A stretch of 64,000 nt of DNA from a virus. Positions 13,953 through 64,000 of the stretch are shown one piece after another. Under the pieces are notes generated by a model that saw only the letters and a program-made list of their open reading frames with translations, was not told where the DNA came from and searched no databases. Every line of letters begins with the position of its first letter. Position 1 is the first letter of the stretch. The stretch lies in the IMG/VR virus record IMGVR_UViG_3300037149_000100; one strand, 5' to 3'. A program made the translations under genes and the position numbers.

Positions 13953-14762
13953 ATGGGACAACCCATCAAGGGCACGATCAGCAATATCATCTTCATCAAA
14001 GGGACCGGGAAGGATAATAGGGCTGCATATCAGGTTGGCACCGAGAGGGTGCCAGCGGCAGTCATTACTCGGCTATTGTCGGCAGTTGAAGGGGTGTCGG
14101 GCTTTCCTTTAGACCGCCACTTCTACCTAGGACTGAAGCGATACCCCGCTTTTATGGATGAGCTAGATGCCCAGGATATCTCTCCTGCCATCGCTATCGC
14201 AGACCTCCAGAAACTTCAAGAGGGGACTAGTGCATTGTATTCGAGTAACCCCATCAACGCCTCTGGGGCTCGTAATGAGGCAGAAATGGAAAACATCATT
14301 GAGATGTTGACGGGGGTGAAGGTTCGACACTACGTAAAGAGTAACCCTAGGACGCATCTGCGATATGGCGCTGACCCTGAATGTGTGCATCACTTTCCCG
14401 CACTCCAGAGAGGGCCTCAGAAGCATAAAGTGATTCCGGACCAAACTATGTGGGTTCCAGCCCTCCGTCACACCTACTTTGTGGAGGATAGAACCCAGAC
14501 GGTTGGAGGTTCGGTTGACGCAAAGATATATAAGCTCCCCTCCCAGTATTTGAAAAATGGAGACATGTCGAAGGACCAAACTCTGGTGCTTGTGGCTGAT
14601 GCCCCTGGCATCCCTGACTACGAAAAAGAAGCTATTGAGAGGGAGTTTCGTGATGCTGGTGCATTAGCGGGACGGAATTACCTGCTTTTCTGGTCTAAGG
14701 TGGATTTCGCAAAGGCATTTTCCAAGCCCATGAGTGAATGGCCAAAGACCCAGGGAGAGTAA
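13953..14762 (+). CDS. putative PD-(D/E)xK endonuclease
   Basis: IPD...FVEDRTQTVGGSVDAKI resembles the E-x-K-x-Q...GSVDEK nuclease motif; abuts a methyltransferase gene. Confidence 0.55.
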   Translation: MGQPIKGTISNIIFIKGTGKDNRAAYQVGTERVPAAVITRLLSAVEGVSGFPLDRHFYLGLKRYPAFMDELDAQDISPAIAIADLQKLQEGTSALYSSNPINASGARNEAEMENIIEMLTGVKVRHYVKSNPRTHLRYGADPECVHHFPALQRGPQKHKVIPDQTMWVPALRHTYFVEDRTQTVGGSVDAKIYKLPSQYLKNGDMSKDQTLVLVADAPGIPDYEKEAIEREFRDAGALAGRNYLLFWSKVDFAKAFSKPMSEWPKTQGE

Positions 14763-14766
14763 TGTA

Positions 14767-15501
14767 GTGTTGGAATTAAATAGAATCTATTGCGAGAATT
14801 GTTTGGACACGATGCTCAAGCTTCCGAAAGAATGTATAGATTTGGTAGTGACGAGCCCCCCTTATGATGATTTACGATGCTACAATGGCTATAGCTTTGA
14901 TTTTGAGGTAGTCGCTAAGGAGTTGTGTCGTATCCTGAAGCCTGGGGGGGTTATCGTTTGGATAGTGGGAGACTCGGTTCAGAAAGGTTCTGAGTCTCTT
15001 ACGTCTTTCAAACAGGCTCTGTTCTTCAAGGGCCTAGGGCTAAATATCCATGACACAATGATTTATGAGAAGAACAGCCCCGCTTATCCAGCCAGAGCAT
15101 GTGGCAACCGCTATACACAGATATTCGAATACATGTTCATCGTTACAAAGGGGAAGCCCAAGACGGTCAATTTGATTTGTGATAAACCAAACAAGTGGGC
15201 TGGATGGAAGGATTTTTCAGGGAAACTGAAGAACCCCGTCCCTGATTTTTCTCCCCGCTGGAACATTTGGCGCTATGTGACGAGCTTCAATGGGGTGAAG
15301 CACCCCGCTCCCTTTCCTGAAAGTCTTTGTAGGGATCACATTATCACATGGTCTAATCCAGACGATATTGTGTATGACCCTTTCATGGGGAGTGGAACCA
15401 CAGCAAAGATGGCCCTGTTGGAGAAAAGAAAGTTTATCGGAAGCGAAATTTCAGAGGCATACTGTCTGATAGCTGAGGAACGAATTAAGAGTCTCCTATA
15501 G
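14767..15501 (+). CDS. beta-class N4-C/N6-A DNA methyltransferase
   Basis: VVTSPPY precedes HPAPFP and DPFMGSGTT. Confidence 0.92.
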   Translation: MLELNRIYCENCLDTMLKLPKECIDLVVTSPPYDDLRCYNGYSFDFEVVAKELCRILKPGGVIVWIVGDSVQKGSESLTSFKQALFFKGLGLNIHDTMIYEKNSPAYPARACGNRYTQIFEYMFIVTKGKPKTVNLICDKPNKWAGWKDFSGKLKNPVPDFSPRWNIWRYVTSFNGVKHPAPFPESLCRDHIITWSNPDDIVYDPFMGSGTTAKMALLEKRKFIGSEISEAYCLIAEERIKSLL

Positions 15502-42009: not shown

Positions 42010-43181
42010 GGTAGTATGCGAGAGATCATCAAATATACACCAGAAATGGCAGCAGAAGTGCGTCAGAGTCTACAGGAGTGCATTGCCCAATTCGTGGGCT
42101 CCAGGATAACTCCAATGACTCTGACGACTCTTGAAGCTATGATCAAACAAAATGTTGAGAGGGTGTGGGATCCAGTCAAGCACTATGGCCAGCACGTAAA
42201 TCTCAAGATCGAATGTGATCCGGACGACCCATCAAAGGTGCTCATATCCCCGAAGGATATGTACACGACAGTGATTCTTACCGGACAGTTTGATCGGTCG
42301 TATGATGAGATTCTGTTCCTCACCAAAGTGGTTGAGGACTATGAACATCACACCACATACGAATATGAGAACCCTGCTGGGCGCTACCTGTTCACGGTGT
42401 ACCATCTCAAGATCATGGATCGTCTGACCGGAGAGGTGTATATCCTACATGAACCTGAGTCTTGGTTCTTCCCCGTGGAGATCAAATGACCTTACCGTGG
42501 CGAATCCAAGCAACTCCCGAATAGGTGAGTATTATAAGGTAGGAGTTGGTATGACGAAAACCATTTGTAGCAATTGTCAGACTACTGAACAAAAGTGCCG
42601 GTTGACAATGAAGGTTAGGGAAGAACTGTTGAGGTTTATGCATCAACGTAAGTTGGCTATGGACGTAGACCGCCTACTCTATGAGTATCTGGATGCATAC
42701 CCATTCGGTTCTGTTGAAGGGTTCGGCCAGTTTGTCAGAGGGGAAAAATTAGTCGTTCTTCCCAGAAGGCCGGTGCCGACTCGTGTCAAACTCACCCCAG
42801 GCCCAAGCCTAGCCGATGTGCTGGATGAATTGAGAGGAAATCATGAGCGAGAATAAGGATTACAACATCAAGATCCCCCTCACGTTGAGGAAGAGCACCA
42901 AGGGCACCTATGTGTTTGCCAATGAGGAGTTCGGTTTCAGTGGCATCTACGTACCAAAGGGGCTGTTTCCTGAAGGTGCGGTTCCAAACTCAATCACCAT
43001 GACTCTCACTCCCAATGAATGAACGCTGCCCCATCTGTGGTGAACACACCGTCGAACCTCACATCAAAGCGTGGGAGGGTGGGTTTGCCGCAGAAGTGGC
43101 GTATATCTGCACTACATGTGGGATTGTCGGATGGTGGGCCTATGGTTCTTATGATCCGAATATGCCTTTTGGGAATGTCTG

Positions 43182-44567: not shown

Positions 44568-45347
44568 ATGACCAGTATCATCAATGAGGATGCACTCACC
44601 TATCTGCCCTCTATGCCTGCTCAGAGTGTAGATGTGGTTATCACCTCCCCCCGTTATAATTTTGGGAAGAATTACCCTGGAGTTTCAGATAAAACTTCAA
44701 TGGATGACTATTTTCAAGAGATGAGAGAATTGGGTAAAGGGCTTTTGCATGTAATCAAAGAGGAGGGGGTGGTTTTTCTTAATGTAGGTTGTAGAGCGGC
44801 TAATCCATTACATGATGTGAATGTAGCTCAGTGTTTCTTGGATGTTGGGTGGGTTCTTCAAGAACGTATCATATGGCAGAAAGCTGATGAAGAGGGGAAT
44901 GGCCACTTTACTCCTATAAACTCTAATGTTTATCTTAATAATTTGTGGGAGAGTATCTTCCTCTTCTCTAAGAAGGGAAGAGTGGGGCTTGACAGACTGG
45001 CTATAGGAGTGCCCTATAAGGATCAAACCAACATAACTCGATGGAAAAGTGGGAAAACAGTCCATTGTCGTGGGGATATCTGGAAGATCCATTATGAGAC
45101 GATCCAAAGCAGAGATAAGGATAGAGCGGGGCATGAGGCGACTTTCCCTAGGGAATTAGTTATTCGTTGCCTTCGTCTAATGGAGAAAGGCAGGACAGGT
45201 CTTACAATTCTGGATCCTTGTTGTGGGATTGGAACAGTCCCTTGTGTTGCTGAAGAACAAGGGCACATCGGAATTGGCATAGAACTAAGCCCGTGTATTG
45301 CACTAGCCGCTAGGACTAACTTACAGATTAGCCAATCATGCCCATAA
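44568..45347 (+). CDS. beta-class DNA methyltransferase (SPRY variant of SPPY)
   Basis: VITSPRYN, HEATFP, LDPCCGIGT, GIELS. Confidence 0.85.
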   Translation: MTSIINEDALTYLPSMPAQSVDVVITSPRYNFGKNYPGVSDKTSMDDYFQEMRELGKGLLHVIKEEGVVFLNVGCRAANPLHDVNVAQCFLDVGWVLQERIIWQKADEEGNGHFTPINSNVYLNNLWESIFLFSKKGRVGLDRLAIGVPYKDQTNITRWKSGKTVHCRGDIWKIHYETIQSRDKDRAGHEATFPRELVIRCLRLMEKGRTGLTILDPCCGIGTVPCVAEEQGHIGIGIELSPCIALAARTNLQISQSCP

Positions 45348-59841: not shown

Positions 59842-60087
59842 ATGACCAATGAGTGGGATGAATTGTTTGACCATCTGGAGCAGAACCCCGTAGAGAAGGA
59901 AGAGACGGAGGATCCGATAGAAGATTGCGATTCAGAATGCTTCGAGGGGACAGAGGTCGCAACCCCCAGTCCCATCCGCCCACGACCCAGAGGCTATAGG
60001 GGAGAAACAATTGAGGATTATTGGGGAGAACGAGCCGAACAGTTCAGAAGAGAGTATCAGAACGGAGGTGTCATTAGCTTCGGTTAG
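59842..60087 (+). CDS. fourth EWDEL-motif protein; stop lies inside the terminal CRISPR repeat
   Basis: MTNEWDELFDHLE; TAG at 60085-60087. Confidence 0.6.
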   Translation: MTNEWDELFDHLEQNPVEKEETEDPIEDCDSECFEGTEVATPSPIRPRPRGYRGETIEDYWGERAEQFRREYQNGGVISFG

Positions 60088-60824
60088 AAGCTCACACAGT
60101 TAGGCCAGATGTCCCGGTGGCGGCAGCGGATCGGCGAGGAGTGTCATTAGCTTCGGTTAGAAGCTCACACAGTTAGAAGTCGCTCTTCAGCAGTACGGAG
60201 TGGACGTTGTGTCATTAGCTTCGGTTAGAAGCTCACACAGTTAGATGCTGCGGAGCAGTGGGGACTCGGGGAAGATTTGCGTGTCATTAGCTTCGGTTAG
60301 AAGCTCACACAGTTAGCGGTCGGAGAGCTTCTGGAGCCTATGGAGGTTTCCGGGTGTCATTAGCTTCGGTTAGAAGCTCACACAGTTAGATGCTGCGGAG
60401 CAGCGGGGATTCGGGAAAAATCTGCGTGTCATTAGCTTCGGTTAGAAGCTCACACAGTTAGCGGCGATGCTGTTGGCCATGGCGGTGACCGGAGCCCTGG
60501 TGTCATTAGCTTCGGTTAGAAGCTCACACAGTTAGCTGATTAGCAGCCCCATTCATGAGCGCGTAACTCCAGTGTCATTAGCTTCGGTTAGAAGCTCACA
60601 CAGTTAGCAGTTCGATGAGGCCATACAGAATAAGCGATTCACGTGTCATTAGCTTCGGTTAGAAGCTCACACAGTTAGGAGGTGGCTGAAATCCTAAAGA
60701 ATCTGGAGATTAACCCGTGTCATTAGCTTCGGTTAGAAGCTCACACAGTTAGTTGGGAACCTGAGCGGTGTAATGTTCGCGTCTCTGAGTGTCATTAGCT
60801 TCGGTTAGAAGCTCACACAGTTAG
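60068..60824 (-). CRISPR. CRISPR array: 11 identical 36-bp repeats, 10 spacers of 32-38 bp
   Basis: Repeat on - strand CTAACTGTGTGAGCTTCTAACCGAAGCTAATGACAC with AGCTTC/GAAGCT hairpin; starts at 60068, 60141, 60209, 60281, 60354, 60426, 60500, 60572, 60643, 60717, 60789. Orientation inferred from the cas gene and leader. Confidence 0.98.
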
Positions 60825-61022
60825 GGGTTGACTCACAAATAGCGGCAATCATGGAGTTTATGATAGCGATTTCGAGCAGTCTAGTCATTTCTTTGGAAAC
60901 TTCTGGAATGGCCCTCATTCGCACAGCCTAAATAGCTGATACGTATGATTCGAGCGACTCCCAGGCCCCCCTCACCTAACCTCTCGCCAAATTGTCAAAG
61001 ATCCTCACCCTACATAATACTC
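60825..61022 (-). promoter_or_regulatory. CRISPR leader
   Basis: ~195-bp non-coding gap between cas stop and array; phage GAGTATTAT box overlaps the cas stop codon. Confidence 0.65.
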
Positions 61023-63804
61023 AGAACGGCATCTTCTCGATCTCGACCCGTTGCTTGAGCAGATCTCGCCGCAGATTACGCTCCGTCTTGTCAATCCACT
61101 CCACCCCATCCAGATACCATGTGGGTCCGGTTCCGGTCAGATGTGTCCTGGCCGCTTCGAGCGATCCGAATTGATAGAGGAGGCAGCCCTTCATTCGCTT
61201 CGCTCCCTCGTCCGAACCCTTCAGATAGACCTGATGCAGATCCGTATGTCGGGAAAAGAATCGGTGGCCGATGTTCTTCGCTGCGTTGATGTCAGACGGC
61301 ACCGATTCGATTTGGCCATCCGGCGTGAGGAAGAACAAATCCCGACCCTTCCGGTACCCAATCCGACCACTCTCATGATGCACCTGAGAGGTCTGAGCCT
61401 CAGAGACGGTTACGACTCCGATCCCATACCACTGAGCCGCATTAATGATCGCATCCTTAACTCGTTTTGGAGACCAGAAAGCAGTGAGGAAGTTCTCATC
61501 CCGCTGATTCAGAGTCTTGCCATACCCCTCAAGGTCTTCTAGCACGATCAGGCAGCAATCATTCTGATGAGCGATACGGACGATCTTCGAAGCAAGTTGC
61601 TTGAGGAAGTTATCCTTGCAGCCATTGTAATCCAGCTTCTGCTGTTCCAAACAGATGGGAATGCGAGAGTTATCCGTACCCAGATAGCTGAGGGATCGGG
61701 TGACCCGTTTCCGCTGTTCAAGGATGTTGAGCCACTTGAAATCCTGATCGAACTTCTGATCAGCCATTTGGTTCTGGGACAGATACGACCGCCTCCGATT
61801 CCGCAACGCTCCGAACTGGAGTGTCACATACTTGAACAGAATATTGATGAGGAAGCTGAAATCCTTCTTGACAGACTCCAAGTTGTTTTCGTATCGCTTC
61901 ATCATCTGATCCATCTGATACAAAGGATCCGGATCCTTGCTGAACTGTTCGAAGATCTGACTCCTTCGCTGACCCGCCACCTTGTAGTCAGCGAAGAACC
62001 GCTGAACCGTATGAATCATATCAACCAGATGAGAGTCAGCCTTCAGACCTTTGCCCTTCGAACTGGATTTGACCTGACCGATCAGATGACCCAGGTTCTT
62101 ATATGCGTAGAACAATTCCGTGTAATCCGGGTCATCAGCAATCTCCATCTCTCCACTGTTCAGAATTTGAGACGGATTCGCCACACCTGTGATGGTTGAT
62201 TCGGTGACGGCCCAGGCGAAAGGACTGCGGATACCCAGGTCCACTGACATCACCTTATAGGTCTTACCCTGAATCAGATTGAACCGTTCAACCGTCTTCT
62301 CCGTATCCTTCGACAGATCTGAACCCGTAGCCGCTGCGGAAAGGTAATACTGCAAGGCAATGTGTTCCTCAGAGGCTCTCATCCCCTCTACGGACATACT
62401 GAGCCGCAGGAAGAACGCTCCGTTCCGATAAACCAGAACCGGTTCCTTGCAAATAGCCGAACGCTCCGTTCCCTTGCGAACAAAGTTCAGGTAGGTGGAT
62501 TCACCTTCTGGATTAGACCAGATTTGGAGATCCTGAAGATAAGAAGTGGGCTTCAGAGTTGAACGATGCCCTCGGAGTCCCTTGGTGTTCATCGCTATGG
62601 TATAAACTTCAAAGTTGAAGTTCTCTTTCCGGTCCCCAACCTTGACATACAGCCGCTCCACCTTTCGACCGTTCCGCATCAACACATCCTTGTCGTTATC
62701 CCAAATCACTCGATCAGGAAGCTCAGAGCCCGTAGCACTGATCAGATGCTTGGTGTAATTCCCACCCAGCAGGTAATAGAACCGATGGTAGTCAGCCTCA
62801 CCGACAAACGCATAAGCGGCAGTCTTCCGATGAGCCCGATGGGACATGATGGCTTCGAGCAGATGGAGATGTTTGAGGATCAGGGGCTTGGGGATCAGAT
62901 CATCCTCAGAGGTCTCCAACGTGTTCCACAGTTCCGGCATTTCAGCTAGCAATTCGTAGAACTTAATATCCAGGCTAAAGTCAATATGCTTCTGCCCCAC
63001 ATCCTTTCGATTCGATTTCAGATAGAAATGCTCGGTCGGAATCGTGCGTTGCTGAAGAGCCGGGATGATACAATCCCTCAGATAGTGATGAACCCGCTCA
63101 TCGAAATGACCGATCAGGTTCAGACCGATACAGGTATCAAAGAACCGCAACAGGCTCTGCCGAATCCGAACCGGAACCTCAGCTTTCATCTGCTGGATTT
63201 GAACCTCTTCCGCCGCATAGGACTCTTCGGTCATCCGCTTCATTTCGATCCAACTCTTCAGATCAGACATCACATCCTTAGTGATGGCTTTCCGTTCTGG
63301 GGCGAACAGCGTAGCGGTGAAAGGAGGGCGGGAGAAGAAGCCGATATGCTTCAACGTATTGGAGACCCGAAACAAGAATTGACTGTTGTGGCTCTTCGGA
63401 TCCGCCACATATTCGGTCAGAACGGCCCAATCCTCGGCGGTCATCTGATCCGTCTGGATTGCCCCTTCGAACAACTTCGTATACATATGATTGCCTTGCT
63501 GACAGTTCAGCAGGCCCAACCACAAAGCCTTCAGGCAATTGCTGAATTGCTCGTAACTGATGGTCCGGTCGGTCCGCTCGTAGAGAGCCTTACGCTGAGC
63601 CGTCAGATCCACCCTTTCACATCCGAGTTCTCGGCTGGTCTGATTCTGGGTCTTCTGCTCCACCCAATCCAGCCCCCAGCAGGGGACTTCATTGTAAAGT
63701 GCATGATATGTCTTGAAGCACCGCTCATACCGATCCCAGAACTGGTCCTTCCGCAGATCGGTCTTCAGTTCGATCACTCTTACTCCACTCAACTCCTTTG
63801 TCAT
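61021..63804 (-). CDS. cas12: type V CRISPR effector (Cas12 family, ~927 aa)
   Basis: RuvC-I VMSVDLGIR, RuvC-II IVLEDL, RuvC-III SDINAAKNIG; adjacent to array; AAAGGAG RBS before ATG at 63804. Confidence 0.93.
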   Translation of the reverse strand: MTKELSGVRVIELKTDLRKDQFWDRYERCFKTYHALYNEVPCWGLDWVEQKTQNQTSRELGCERVDLTAQRKALYERTDRTISYEQFSNCLKALWLGLLNCQQGNHMYTKLFEGAIQTDQMTAEDWAVLTEYVADPKSHNSQFLFRVSNTLKHIGFFSRPPFTATLFAPERKAITKDVMSDLKSWIEMKRMTEESYAAEEVQIQQMKAEVPVRIRQSLLRFFDTCIGLNLIGHFDERVHHYLRDCIIPALQQRTIPTEHFYLKSNRKDVGQKHIDFSLDIKFYELLAEMPELWNTLETSEDDLIPKPLILKHLHLLEAIMSHRAHRKTAAYAFVGEADYHRFYYLLGGNYTKHLISATGSELPDRVIWDNDKDVLMRNGRKVERLYVKVGDRKENFNFEVYTIAMNTKGLRGHRSTLKPTSYLQDLQIWSNPEGESTYLNFVRKGTERSAICKEPVLVYRNGAFFLRLSMSVEGMRASEEHIALQYYLSAAATGSDLSKDTEKTVERFNLIQGKTYKVMSVDLGIRSPFAWAVTESTITGVANPSQILNSGEMEIADDPDYTELFYAYKNLGHLIGQVKSSSKGKGLKADSHLVDMIHTVQRFFADYKVAGQRRSQIFEQFSKDPDPLYQMDQMMKRYENNLESVKKDFSFLINILFKYVTLQFGALRNRRRSYLSQNQMADQKFDQDFKWLNILEQRKRVTRSLSYLGTDNSRIPICLEQQKLDYNGCKDNFLKQLASKIVRIAHQNDCCLIVLEDLEGYGKTLNQRDENFLTAFWSPKRVKDAIINAAQWYGIGVVTVSEAQTSQVHHESGRIGYRKGRDLFFLTPDGQIESVPSDINAAKNIGHRFFSRHTDLHQVYLKGSDEGAKRMKGCLLYQFGSLEAARTHLTGTGPTWYLDGVEWIDKTERNLRRDLLKQRVEIEKMPF

Positions 63805-63930
63805 GTCTGGCTCTCCTTTGAGCGTGTGCTGCGATGAGCATCTATAGGGATGATACCGCATCTTGCAAGAGTTTGGATACAAAAATTTCTGAGACATTTC
63901 AAGAAAGTAAAAGTCTAACAATAGTTTATT

Positions 63931-63972
63931 AAAAGGCCGGTGCCGACTCTACGGAGAAGACACCGGCCTTTT
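63931..63972. terminator. inverted repeat / bidirectional terminator-like hairpin
   Basis: AAAAGGCCGGTG...CACCGGCCTTTT. Confidence 0.6.
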
Positions 63973-64000
63973 AATATGAACCTTCGCAGGCCGGTGCCGA

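Follow-up and report, generated by a model that had tools for sequence, protein, structure and literature searches.

A putative type V CRISPR-Cas module of a distinct Cas12 lineage on a relative of the acidobacterial phage Tunturi_5

A stretch of 64,000 nucleotides (nt) from the IMG/VR virus record IMGVR_UViG_3300037149_000100, here called the window, contains near its end a CRISPR locus (short palindromic repeats that are clustered and regularly interspaced). On the minus strand, a gene for a Cas12-like effector of 927 amino acids (aa) is followed by a leader and a CRISPR array (Table 1). A preliminary description had called this a type V locus on a phage genome, and it is indeed a genuine one on a phage-like genome. 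It looks functional, belongs to what seems a distinct Cas12 lineage, and is probably guided by CRISPR RNA (crRNA) only. Other records and loci are cited by G, L, and P handles. G001 is an IMG/VR record that overlaps the window from position 42843 and extends 70 kilobases (kb) past it; CheckV rates it 33% complete. The phage sequence examined is the window plus G001, 134 kb in all, and L001 supplies 10 kb upstream of the cas12 gene.

The effector gene, leader, and array

The longest minus-strand open reading frame (ORF) runs from 63921 to 61021, and its plausible start is the ATG at 63804. This ATG lies six bases after a ribosome-binding site, AAAGGAGAG. The protein has a single split RuvC site with its D, E, and D residues, D522 in RuvC-I (VDLG), E756 in RuvC-II (LED), and D838 in RuvC-III (SDINAA). 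All three are invariant across a five-sequence alignment of the family and at least 90% conserved in 150 relatives. They are also aligned as D, E, and D in all full-length rows of the 29-row clade described below, including the members that lie next to a Cas3 gene. The single RuvC effector with intact catalytic motifs that had been proposed is thus confirmed. The segment at about residues 796-836, the target-nucleic-acid-binding (TNB) insert where TnpB and Cas12f carry a CxxC zinc finger, contains no cysteine, as had also been remarked for the TnpB finger. The protein is a putative crRNA-guided nuclease.

Library profiles match the effector weakly and in its C-terminal third only, with RuvC and TNB profiles covering residues 730-850. 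The Pfam model C2c1_RuvC-like gives 30 bits, and the NCBIfam TnpB model gives 53 bits (cut-off 100) over the C-terminal part only. The best PADLOC model for the C-terminal part is Cas12h, at 56 bits over residues 729-882 only. Identity as a TnpB, a protein of about 400 aa with a zinc-finger TNB and a transposon context, was ruled out by the score below the cut-off, the TNB without cysteines, and the array that adjoins the gene.

The 11 perfect repeats and the leader of the preliminary description were both recovered. By six lines of evidence, the array is read on the minus strand together with the cas12 gene, which is a correction as to its direction. These are the layout of the locus, the polarity of the spacers, the decayed far end of the array, the leader box, the repeat hairpin, and the protospacer flanking motif. 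As in the window, the array lies 3' of the gene and on its strand wherever a homologous locus bears one (L022, L026, and L027). Polarity was taken from a comparison of the spacers of the window, L003, L029, and G001. Spacers 5, 8, and 9 of the window are common to L003 and L029, both of which have the identical effector, and spacer 10 is also in L003. These common spacers sit at the end far from cas12, and the near end differs. In the array of G001, the repeat copies most distant from cas12 are decayed. Finally, a consistent flanking motif was obtained in the minus-strand orientation only.

G001 encodes an effector that is 100% identical to the window's, and its nine spacers are all different from those of the window. 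Because an identical effector is found with wholly different arrays, the spacers are, on this comparison, subject to turnover.

The far end of the window's array (60040-60070) is a deletion junction relative to G001 (compared with L016:1716-2482). At that point, G001 has 767 extra bases, in which there are two decayed copies of the repeat, a hairpin that resembles a terminator, and a small ORF on the minus strand. At gene ends, both in the window (63931-64000, minus strand) and at L016:2320-2360, there are near-identical GGCCGGTGCCGA/TCGGCACCGGCC hairpins with T runs after them. They may be a common terminator motif of the phage.

The leader alignment took in L022 and L024. The box TCTTTGACAATTTGGCGAGAGG differs at one base in L022, whose effector is 68% identical, and is kept through TCTTTGACAATTTGGC in L024, whose effector is 43% identical. 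With its TTGACA hexamer, which resembles a -35 element, this box would act as a promoter. Promoter-like sites in the region of the second, weaker site are no more numerous than in shuffled sequence. Besides the TTGACA box, GCTCGA motifs recur in the leaders of the window (60825-61020), L022 (2998-3195), and L024 (10357-10552).

The repeat, CTAACTGTGTGAGCTTCTAACCGAAGCTAATGACAC, folds into a hairpin with an inner helix of 6 base pairs (bp) and an outer helix of 4 bp that closes at the last repeat base. Across four loci, every cell of the two helices is paired, and compensatory changes are present in 8 of the 10 pairs; the outer helix is GTGT/ACAC, GTGC/GCAC, or GTCT/AGAC. This level of covariation was reached by none of 500 shuffles, and no slid register comes near it. 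Since the hairpin ends at the last repeat base, the mature crRNA would consist of a 5' repeat handle and then a 3' guide. A natural guide architecture derived in this way, from sequence alone, makes the effector directly testable as a nuclease.

In agreement with the preliminary description, no anti-repeat (a match to the repeat of at least 14 nt) was found within about 10 kb either side of the array, and guidance by crRNA alone is proposed for this reason. A second small RNA, either a trans-activating crRNA (tracrRNA) or a scout RNA of short complementarity, could instead be needed and could be encoded in the leader or in the gap of about 400 nt upstream of cas12. The leader box, which is kept across effectors that are 43-68% identical, and the repeated GCTCGA motifs would fit such a gene. 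In addition, a 14-nt screen would miss scout RNAs, since in Cas12c and Cas12d they base-pair with no more than a few positions of the repeat. A second RNA nevertheless seems quite improbable. The repeat makes its own covarying hairpin beside the guide, the conserved box reads as a -35 element, and the three closest solved effectors (Cas12o1, Cas12X, and Cas12h1) were all solved with crRNA alone.

Table 1. Positions of the features discussed (window coordinates unless a locus handle is given)
Feature	Position	Strand	Basis or remark
cas12-like effector gene, 927 aa	61021..63804	minus	ATG at 63804, stop at 61021-61023; profiles, alignment, structure model
Ribosome-binding site AAAGGAGAG (contains GGAG)	63811..63819	minus	6 nt 5' of the ATG; seen directly in the sequence
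Leader, 196 nt, from the cas12 stop codon to the first (newest-end) repeat	60825..61020	minus	Spacer polarity, decayed far-end repeats, leader alignment
Conserved leader box TCTTTGACAATTTGGCGAGAGG with TTGACA -35-like hexamer	60980..61001	minus	Just 3' of the stop codon
Second promoter-like site (ATGACT, 17 nt, TATCAT)	60860..60888	minus	About 35 nt 5' of the first repeat; consensus scan only, weak
CRISPR array: ten spacers (32-38 nt) between 11 identical repeats of 36 nt	60068..60824	minus	crRNA-sense repeat CTAACTGTGTGAGCTTCTAACCGAAGCTAATGACAC
Spacer 6, variant of spacer 8	60390..60425	minus	31/36 to the protospacer of spacer 8
Spacer 8 (counted from the leader)	60245..60280	minus	36/36 to the Holophagaceae contig, 5' flank ATG
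690-aa AAA ATPase gene targeted by G001 spacer 4	L042:12284-14356 (genome G002)		PADLOC IetA models
Cas3 genes upstream of cas12	L024:5253-7514, L025:7564-9858, L026:7709-9961		Also in two loci without DNA

Relatives of the effector among Cas12 proteins

A word-indexed search gave only four relatives of the effector. An exhaustive profile search of 1.84 billion representatives gave 551 matches at E <=0.001. In a 59-row tree, the window's protein is surrounded by a clade of 29 representative rows that has full support. Ten members of this clade were looked up, and all were singleton metagenome proteins; one is named 'IS605 OrfB family transposase', one 'hypothetical', and the others are unnamed. 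By the tree, the window's Cas12 lineage is distinct and lies in a clade without any functional name. The compact lineage supposed in the preliminary description appears as a separate, supported clade with about 14% identity to solved effectors, but with 29 representatives it is not an orphan. A search of 133 Holophagaceae genomes gave no homologue of the effector. Among 50,697 GenBank phages, of which Tunturi_5 is one, and 72,556 plasmids, the only matches were TnpB fragments, and again there was no homologue.

An AlphaFold model from a 61-sequence alignment reached a pLDDT (predicted local distance difference test score) of 90.8 and a predicted template modelling score (pTM) of 0.85. An earlier prediction from five sequences was poor (pLDDT 65). 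In Foldseek, the model has full-length matches to Cas12o1, Cas12X2, Cas12h1, and Cas12b, with E values of 1e-19 to 1e-26 and template modelling (TM) scores of 0.55-0.67. Cas12o1, which is also deposited as Cas12j19, Cas12-2, and Cas12X (PDB 8xca, 8wru, and 8zqb), and Cas12X2 score 0.60-0.66, Cas12h1 scores 0.62 and 0.67, and Cas12b scores 0.55-0.59. Cas12i scores about 0.4, and CasLambda and CasPhi score 0.20-0.28. Of the Cas12h/Cas12i-like group that had been suggested, the Cas12h part holds, with Cas12h1 among the closest folds, and the Cas12i part does not. The statement that the effector is neither CasPhi nor CasLambda is borne out.

The locus has three of the traits that define type V, and a fourth, crRNA-guided cleavage of nucleic acid, is predicted. 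There is a single split RuvC with D, E, and D residues, and the predicted model with its full-length matches has the bilobed Cas12 fold (WED, REC, RuvC, and Nuc). An adjacent array carries variable spacers with a protospacer-adjacent motif (PAM) on the 5' side, as judged from its 11 repeats, spacer turnover, and the ATG/GTG flanks of five spacers (see below).

Two described effectors without tracrRNA have a similar size and repeat length, and the lineage is therefore not as unmatched as it was first taken to be. Cas12o1 has 908 aa, a 36-nt repeat, an ATG PAM, and a crRNA as its only guide (PMC13717751). Cas-delta is known from three proteins, 867-936 aa long and about 30% identical to one another, found in metagenomes only, with repeats of about 36 bp, no Cas1, Cas2, Cas4, or tracrRNA, a 5'-RYR PAM (ATG was used), and Cas12b as the closest fold reported (Yang et al., NAR 2025; PMC12721324). 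That paper mentions neither a phage context nor a link with Cas3 (PMC12721324). By analogy, the window's effector may work like Cas12o1 and Cas-delta, whose mechanism and motif its own would resemble.

It could be that the window's protein is simply a member of Cas-delta or of the Cas12o/Cas12X group and that its lineage is not new. The size, repeat, gene content, and PAM of Cas-delta fit the locus (PMC12721324), which has 927 aa, 36-nt repeats, no adaptation genes or anti-repeat found, and ATG/GTG flanks; these shared descriptive traits are no proof of common descent. The size, repeat, and PAM of Cas12o1 also fit (PMC13717751). Of the Cas12o traits, the 36-nt repeat is seen here, the ATG/GTG flank comes from the protospacers, and crRNA-only guidance from the lack of an anti-repeat. 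Cas12o1 is, moreover, the best structural match and the best sequence match among solved structures, and a broad 150-sequence profile gives a full-length link between Cas12X and the window's relatives (490 bits, E 1e-145).

We nevertheless consider such membership unlikely. Placement in Cas12o by full-length similarity at the family level was tried and rejected. The family's own profile gives 97 bits against Cas12o1/Cas12X, over the C-terminal 210 residues only, whereas true family members score at least 340 bits. Identity to the best structural matches is about 14%, and the fully supported clade is separate in the tree from the Cas12o1-like row P0098. For Cas-delta-1, the comparison was made by published residues, not full sequences. 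At best 5 of 20 such residues are found in any of 153 relatives, and the RuvC spacing is 204/88 (D491/E695/D783; PMC12721324), as against 233-246/80-85 in the window's closest clade. The published residues and RuvC positions thus fit neither the window's protein nor any of the relatives.

Membership in two further groups was also tried and rejected. Cas12h1 (type V-H; PDB 8y9l) is likewise compact at 870 aa, is guided by crRNA only, has a purine-rich PAM, and is close in fold. A full-length profile match to Cas12h was not obtained, however; besides the PADLOC match to the C-terminal part, the family's own profile gives 48 bits against Cas12h1, and identity is again about 14%. CasPhi (Cas12j) and CasLambda share with the window a minimal phage-borne locus of an effector and an array, without adaptation genes or tracrRNA. 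They are much smaller proteins with a different fold arrangement, and no sequence match to them was found at E <=1. The window would thus add a distinct compact Cas12 lineage that is probably free of tracrRNA and has an ATG/GTG motif that is not T-rich.

Protospacers and the likely host

Spacers 6 and 8 of the window differ at five third-codon positions only. A search pattern with N at every third base was built from them and run against 185,579 species genomes. It was found at one place only, on a contig of 5.7 Mb (CAVQVX010000001.1) that comes from an uncultured Holophagaceae bacterium, where the protospacer of spacer 8 encodes the codons QIFPESPLLRS in an ORF of 381 aa. Four spacers of G001 also have matches in this genome. 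Spacer 7 matches the same ORF over the 20 nt nearest the flank (20/20, flank ATG). Spacer 5 matches an unnamed gene present in two copies (33/36, flank ATG; second copy AGG), and spacer 2 matches a ParA-like ATPase gene, also in two copies (32/37, flank ATG; second copy ATA). Spacer 4 matches the gene for a 690-aa AAA ATPase (32/36, flank GTG; PADLOC IetA, E 4e-26).

The best match of each of the five spacers has ATG or GTG at the 5' flank. If all bases were used equally, five flanks of this kind would arise by chance with a probability that we put at about (1/32)^5. The mismatches are mostly at third-codon positions, which fits the true host being a near relative of the matched Holophagaceae genome. 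Together, these matches speak for ATG or GTG as the 5' motif, for the crRNA direction, for a host among the Acidobacteria, and for deployment against resident mobile elements. Window spacer 5 also has a match in L032 (29/38, flank GCC), which was too weak to be counted.

Other searches with the spacers found no targets. There was no match to the phage itself or to the sister loci, none of the array to 50,697 GenBank phages, and none to the diverged (about 30% identical) primase homologues of other Holophagaceae genomes. The codon-degenerate pattern of the duplicated spacer found nothing in IMG/VR and only another copy of the array in JGI metagenomes.

After the 381-aa target ORF comes a D5_N/DUF5906 primase-helicase gene, and an integrase gene is present about 3 kb upstream. 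Of 133 Holophagaceae genomes, 22 have homologues of the ORF, for the most part as fusions with the helicase. The island as a whole (L041:16095-17243 to L042:3983, genome G002) has the integrase, several small ORFs, the target ORF, and the D5-type primase-helicase. At its border is a fragment from the C-terminus of a type I restriction R subunit, and the island could be a satellite-like element that split hsdR.

The 690-aa IetA-like ATPase may be a host defence gene, and the system is thus possibly aimed at defence as well. The main role of the locus might even be counter-defence or host manipulation, with spacers that cut or silence host defence genes and not competing elements. The spacer match to the ATPase gene fits such a role, as does the R-subunit fragment beside the island, which may be defence-carrying or satellite-like. 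This role seems possible, but we doubt that it is the main one. Integrated elements supply the clearest targets, which are genes for replication and partition, namely the primase-side ORF and the two copies of the ParA-like gene. The defence function of the targets is putative, and the two roles are compatible. The use against competing elements that the preliminary description proposed is thus supported by the protospacers in the integrase-primase island and the ParA-like genes.

A similar conflict is that of phage ICP1, which uses a type I-F CRISPR-Cas system against the PLE island of Vibrio cholerae. In both cases, a lytic phage's own CRISPR system is directed against a small chromosomal island that bears an integrase and encodes replication proteins. 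The system of ICP1 is of class 1 and complete, including Cas1 and a Cas2-3 fusion, whereas the window has a single class 2 effector and no adaptation genes were found. The parallel is limited in that the target island here is called a satellite from gene content alone. It would lie in the Acidobacteria, whose phages are little studied. The locus is also one of the rare cases in which a phage class 2 system can be linked to real targets, here the mobile elements of a Holophagaceae genome and a gene in it that may serve defence.

The element itself is best called a relative of the jumbo phages that is related to Tunturi_5, a 309-kb phage of an acidobacterium; its completeness is not shown. Over 98% of its length, a 1278-aa ORF of G001 shares 46% identity with the Tunturi_5 tail fibre (a Tunturiibacter phage). 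The host is likely a member of the Holophagaceae.

We consider it likely that the locus is a working type V interference module on a large phage related to Tunturi_5, probably with a Holophagaceae host, and that it works as follows. The cas12 gene, the 196-nt leader, and the array would be co-transcribed from the minus strand. Each repeat would form the two-helix hairpin that ends at its last base, giving mature crRNAs with the 5' handle and 3' guide and no need of a tracrRNA. The complex of effector and crRNA would recognise double-stranded DNA with 5'-ATG or 5'-GTG beside the protospacer, form an R-loop, and cleave by the single RuvC site (D522/E756/D838). The phage would in this way target co-resident mobile elements, that is, the integrase and primase-helicase island, ParA-bearing elements, and the IetA-like ATPase gene, and competitors or host-borne interference would be removed.

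Several points weigh against this reading. Only 5 of about 45 distinct spacers were matched, and all of them in one genome. One match covers the flank-proximal 20 nt only, four are imperfect, and the second copies of two targets are flanked by AGG and ATA. Transcription, crRNA processing, and the absence of a tracrRNA are inferred from the sequence. Capsid and terminase genes were not found in the sequence examined; the terminase and gp23 profiles were run on G001, the latter without a positive control. The spacers turn over, yet no acquisition genes were found in the phage sequence examined or in the candidate host. With G001 only 33% complete by CheckV, much of the phage genome, whose size we put at about 290 kb from that figure, is unseen, and a distant adaptation module is possible.

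Profiles of Cas1, Cas2, and Cas4 have no match in G001, the 96 kb that the Cas1 profile search covered, and no called gene in the 10 kb upstream (L001) has a Cas1, Cas2, or Cas4 domain. Positions 1-42842 of the window were checked in part, by PHROGs or Pfam scans of 20 mid-size and large ORFs, with no Cas match. A PADLOC batch scan of 91 window ORFs returned methyltransferase families only and is uninformative on Cas1, Cas2, and Cas4. Within this scope, the earlier statement that adaptation genes are absent holds. The suggestion that the locus relies on Cas1 and Cas2 of the host has no support, as a search of the one candidate host genome gave no Cas1 and 133 Holophagaceae genomes gave no repeat similar to the window's.

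Cas3 in sister loci and other phage genes

In five of the seven loci that have upstream sequence (P0004, P0005, P0006, P0008, and P0015), cas12 is directly preceded by a gene of about 750 aa. This gene encodes a complete type I-C-like Cas3 with an HD nuclease and a helicase. PADLOC Cas3c matches it at 323-351 bits over nearly the whole model, an HD-nuclease model matches residues 20-208, and solved Cas3 structures match at 1e-29. The copies of L024, L025, and L026 have 47-53% mutual identity. No Cas3-like sequence was found by tblastn in the window and G001. Since the window's protein nests among the Cas3-bearing loci in the tree, this suggests that Cas3 was lost in its lineage.

A Cas12-Cas3 'class 1-2 hybrid' has been described (Altae-Tran et al., Science 2023; PMC10910872). 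In it, the partner of Cas3 is Cas12m, an effector for which DNA cutting is not known. The sister loci are similar in placing a type I-C-like Cas3 directly upstream of cas12. They differ in that the family is not Cas12m (the broad profile gives 57 bits against the Cas12m structure and 490 bits against Cas12X), the RuvC triad is kept, and the window has no Cas3. On this precedent (PMC10910872), the window's Cas12 could be mainly an RNA-guided binder that ancestrally recruited Cas3 and here blocks transcription or replication without cutting. The full Cas3 before cas12 in most of the loci, with the window's protein nested among them, would agree with this. We hold it to be very unlikely, as all full-length rows of the clade keep the RuvC triad, including the Cas3-adjacent members, and cutting or nicking of DNA is known for Cas12o1 and Cas12h1, the closest relatives that have been characterised. 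Cas12h1 is reported to be mainly a nickase (PMC11830025).

More tentatively, and with a low probability in our own judgement, the whole family could be a phage-borne interference system of two parts. In it, a nuclease-intact Cas12 would find the target and a type I-C-like Cas3 would shred it, and the window's lineage would have dropped Cas3. Spacers would be renewed under strict ATG/GTG selection without Cas1-Cas2 of the phage or the host. If true, this renewal would mean a route of spacer acquisition that is as yet unknown. The locus makes two questions testable, how spacers are renewed without a visible Cas1 and what role Cas3 has beside a nuclease-intact Cas12.

Other genes of the phage were also noted. 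PHROG matches among the window's proteins include a UvsX-like recombinase, an NAD-dependent ligase, a gp63-like RNA ligase, and an Ant-like protein. Two genes for N6/N4 DNA methyltransferases are present at 14734-15498 and 44568-45344 of the window, and they suggest that the phage protects itself against restriction. G001 has a run of very large ORFs, of 841-2266 aa, at 54-90 kb (L017:14518 to L019:9905). The ORF that resembles the Tunturi_5 tail fibre is one of them, and another matches a Tunturi_5 gene that is annotated as a regulator of chromosome condensation.

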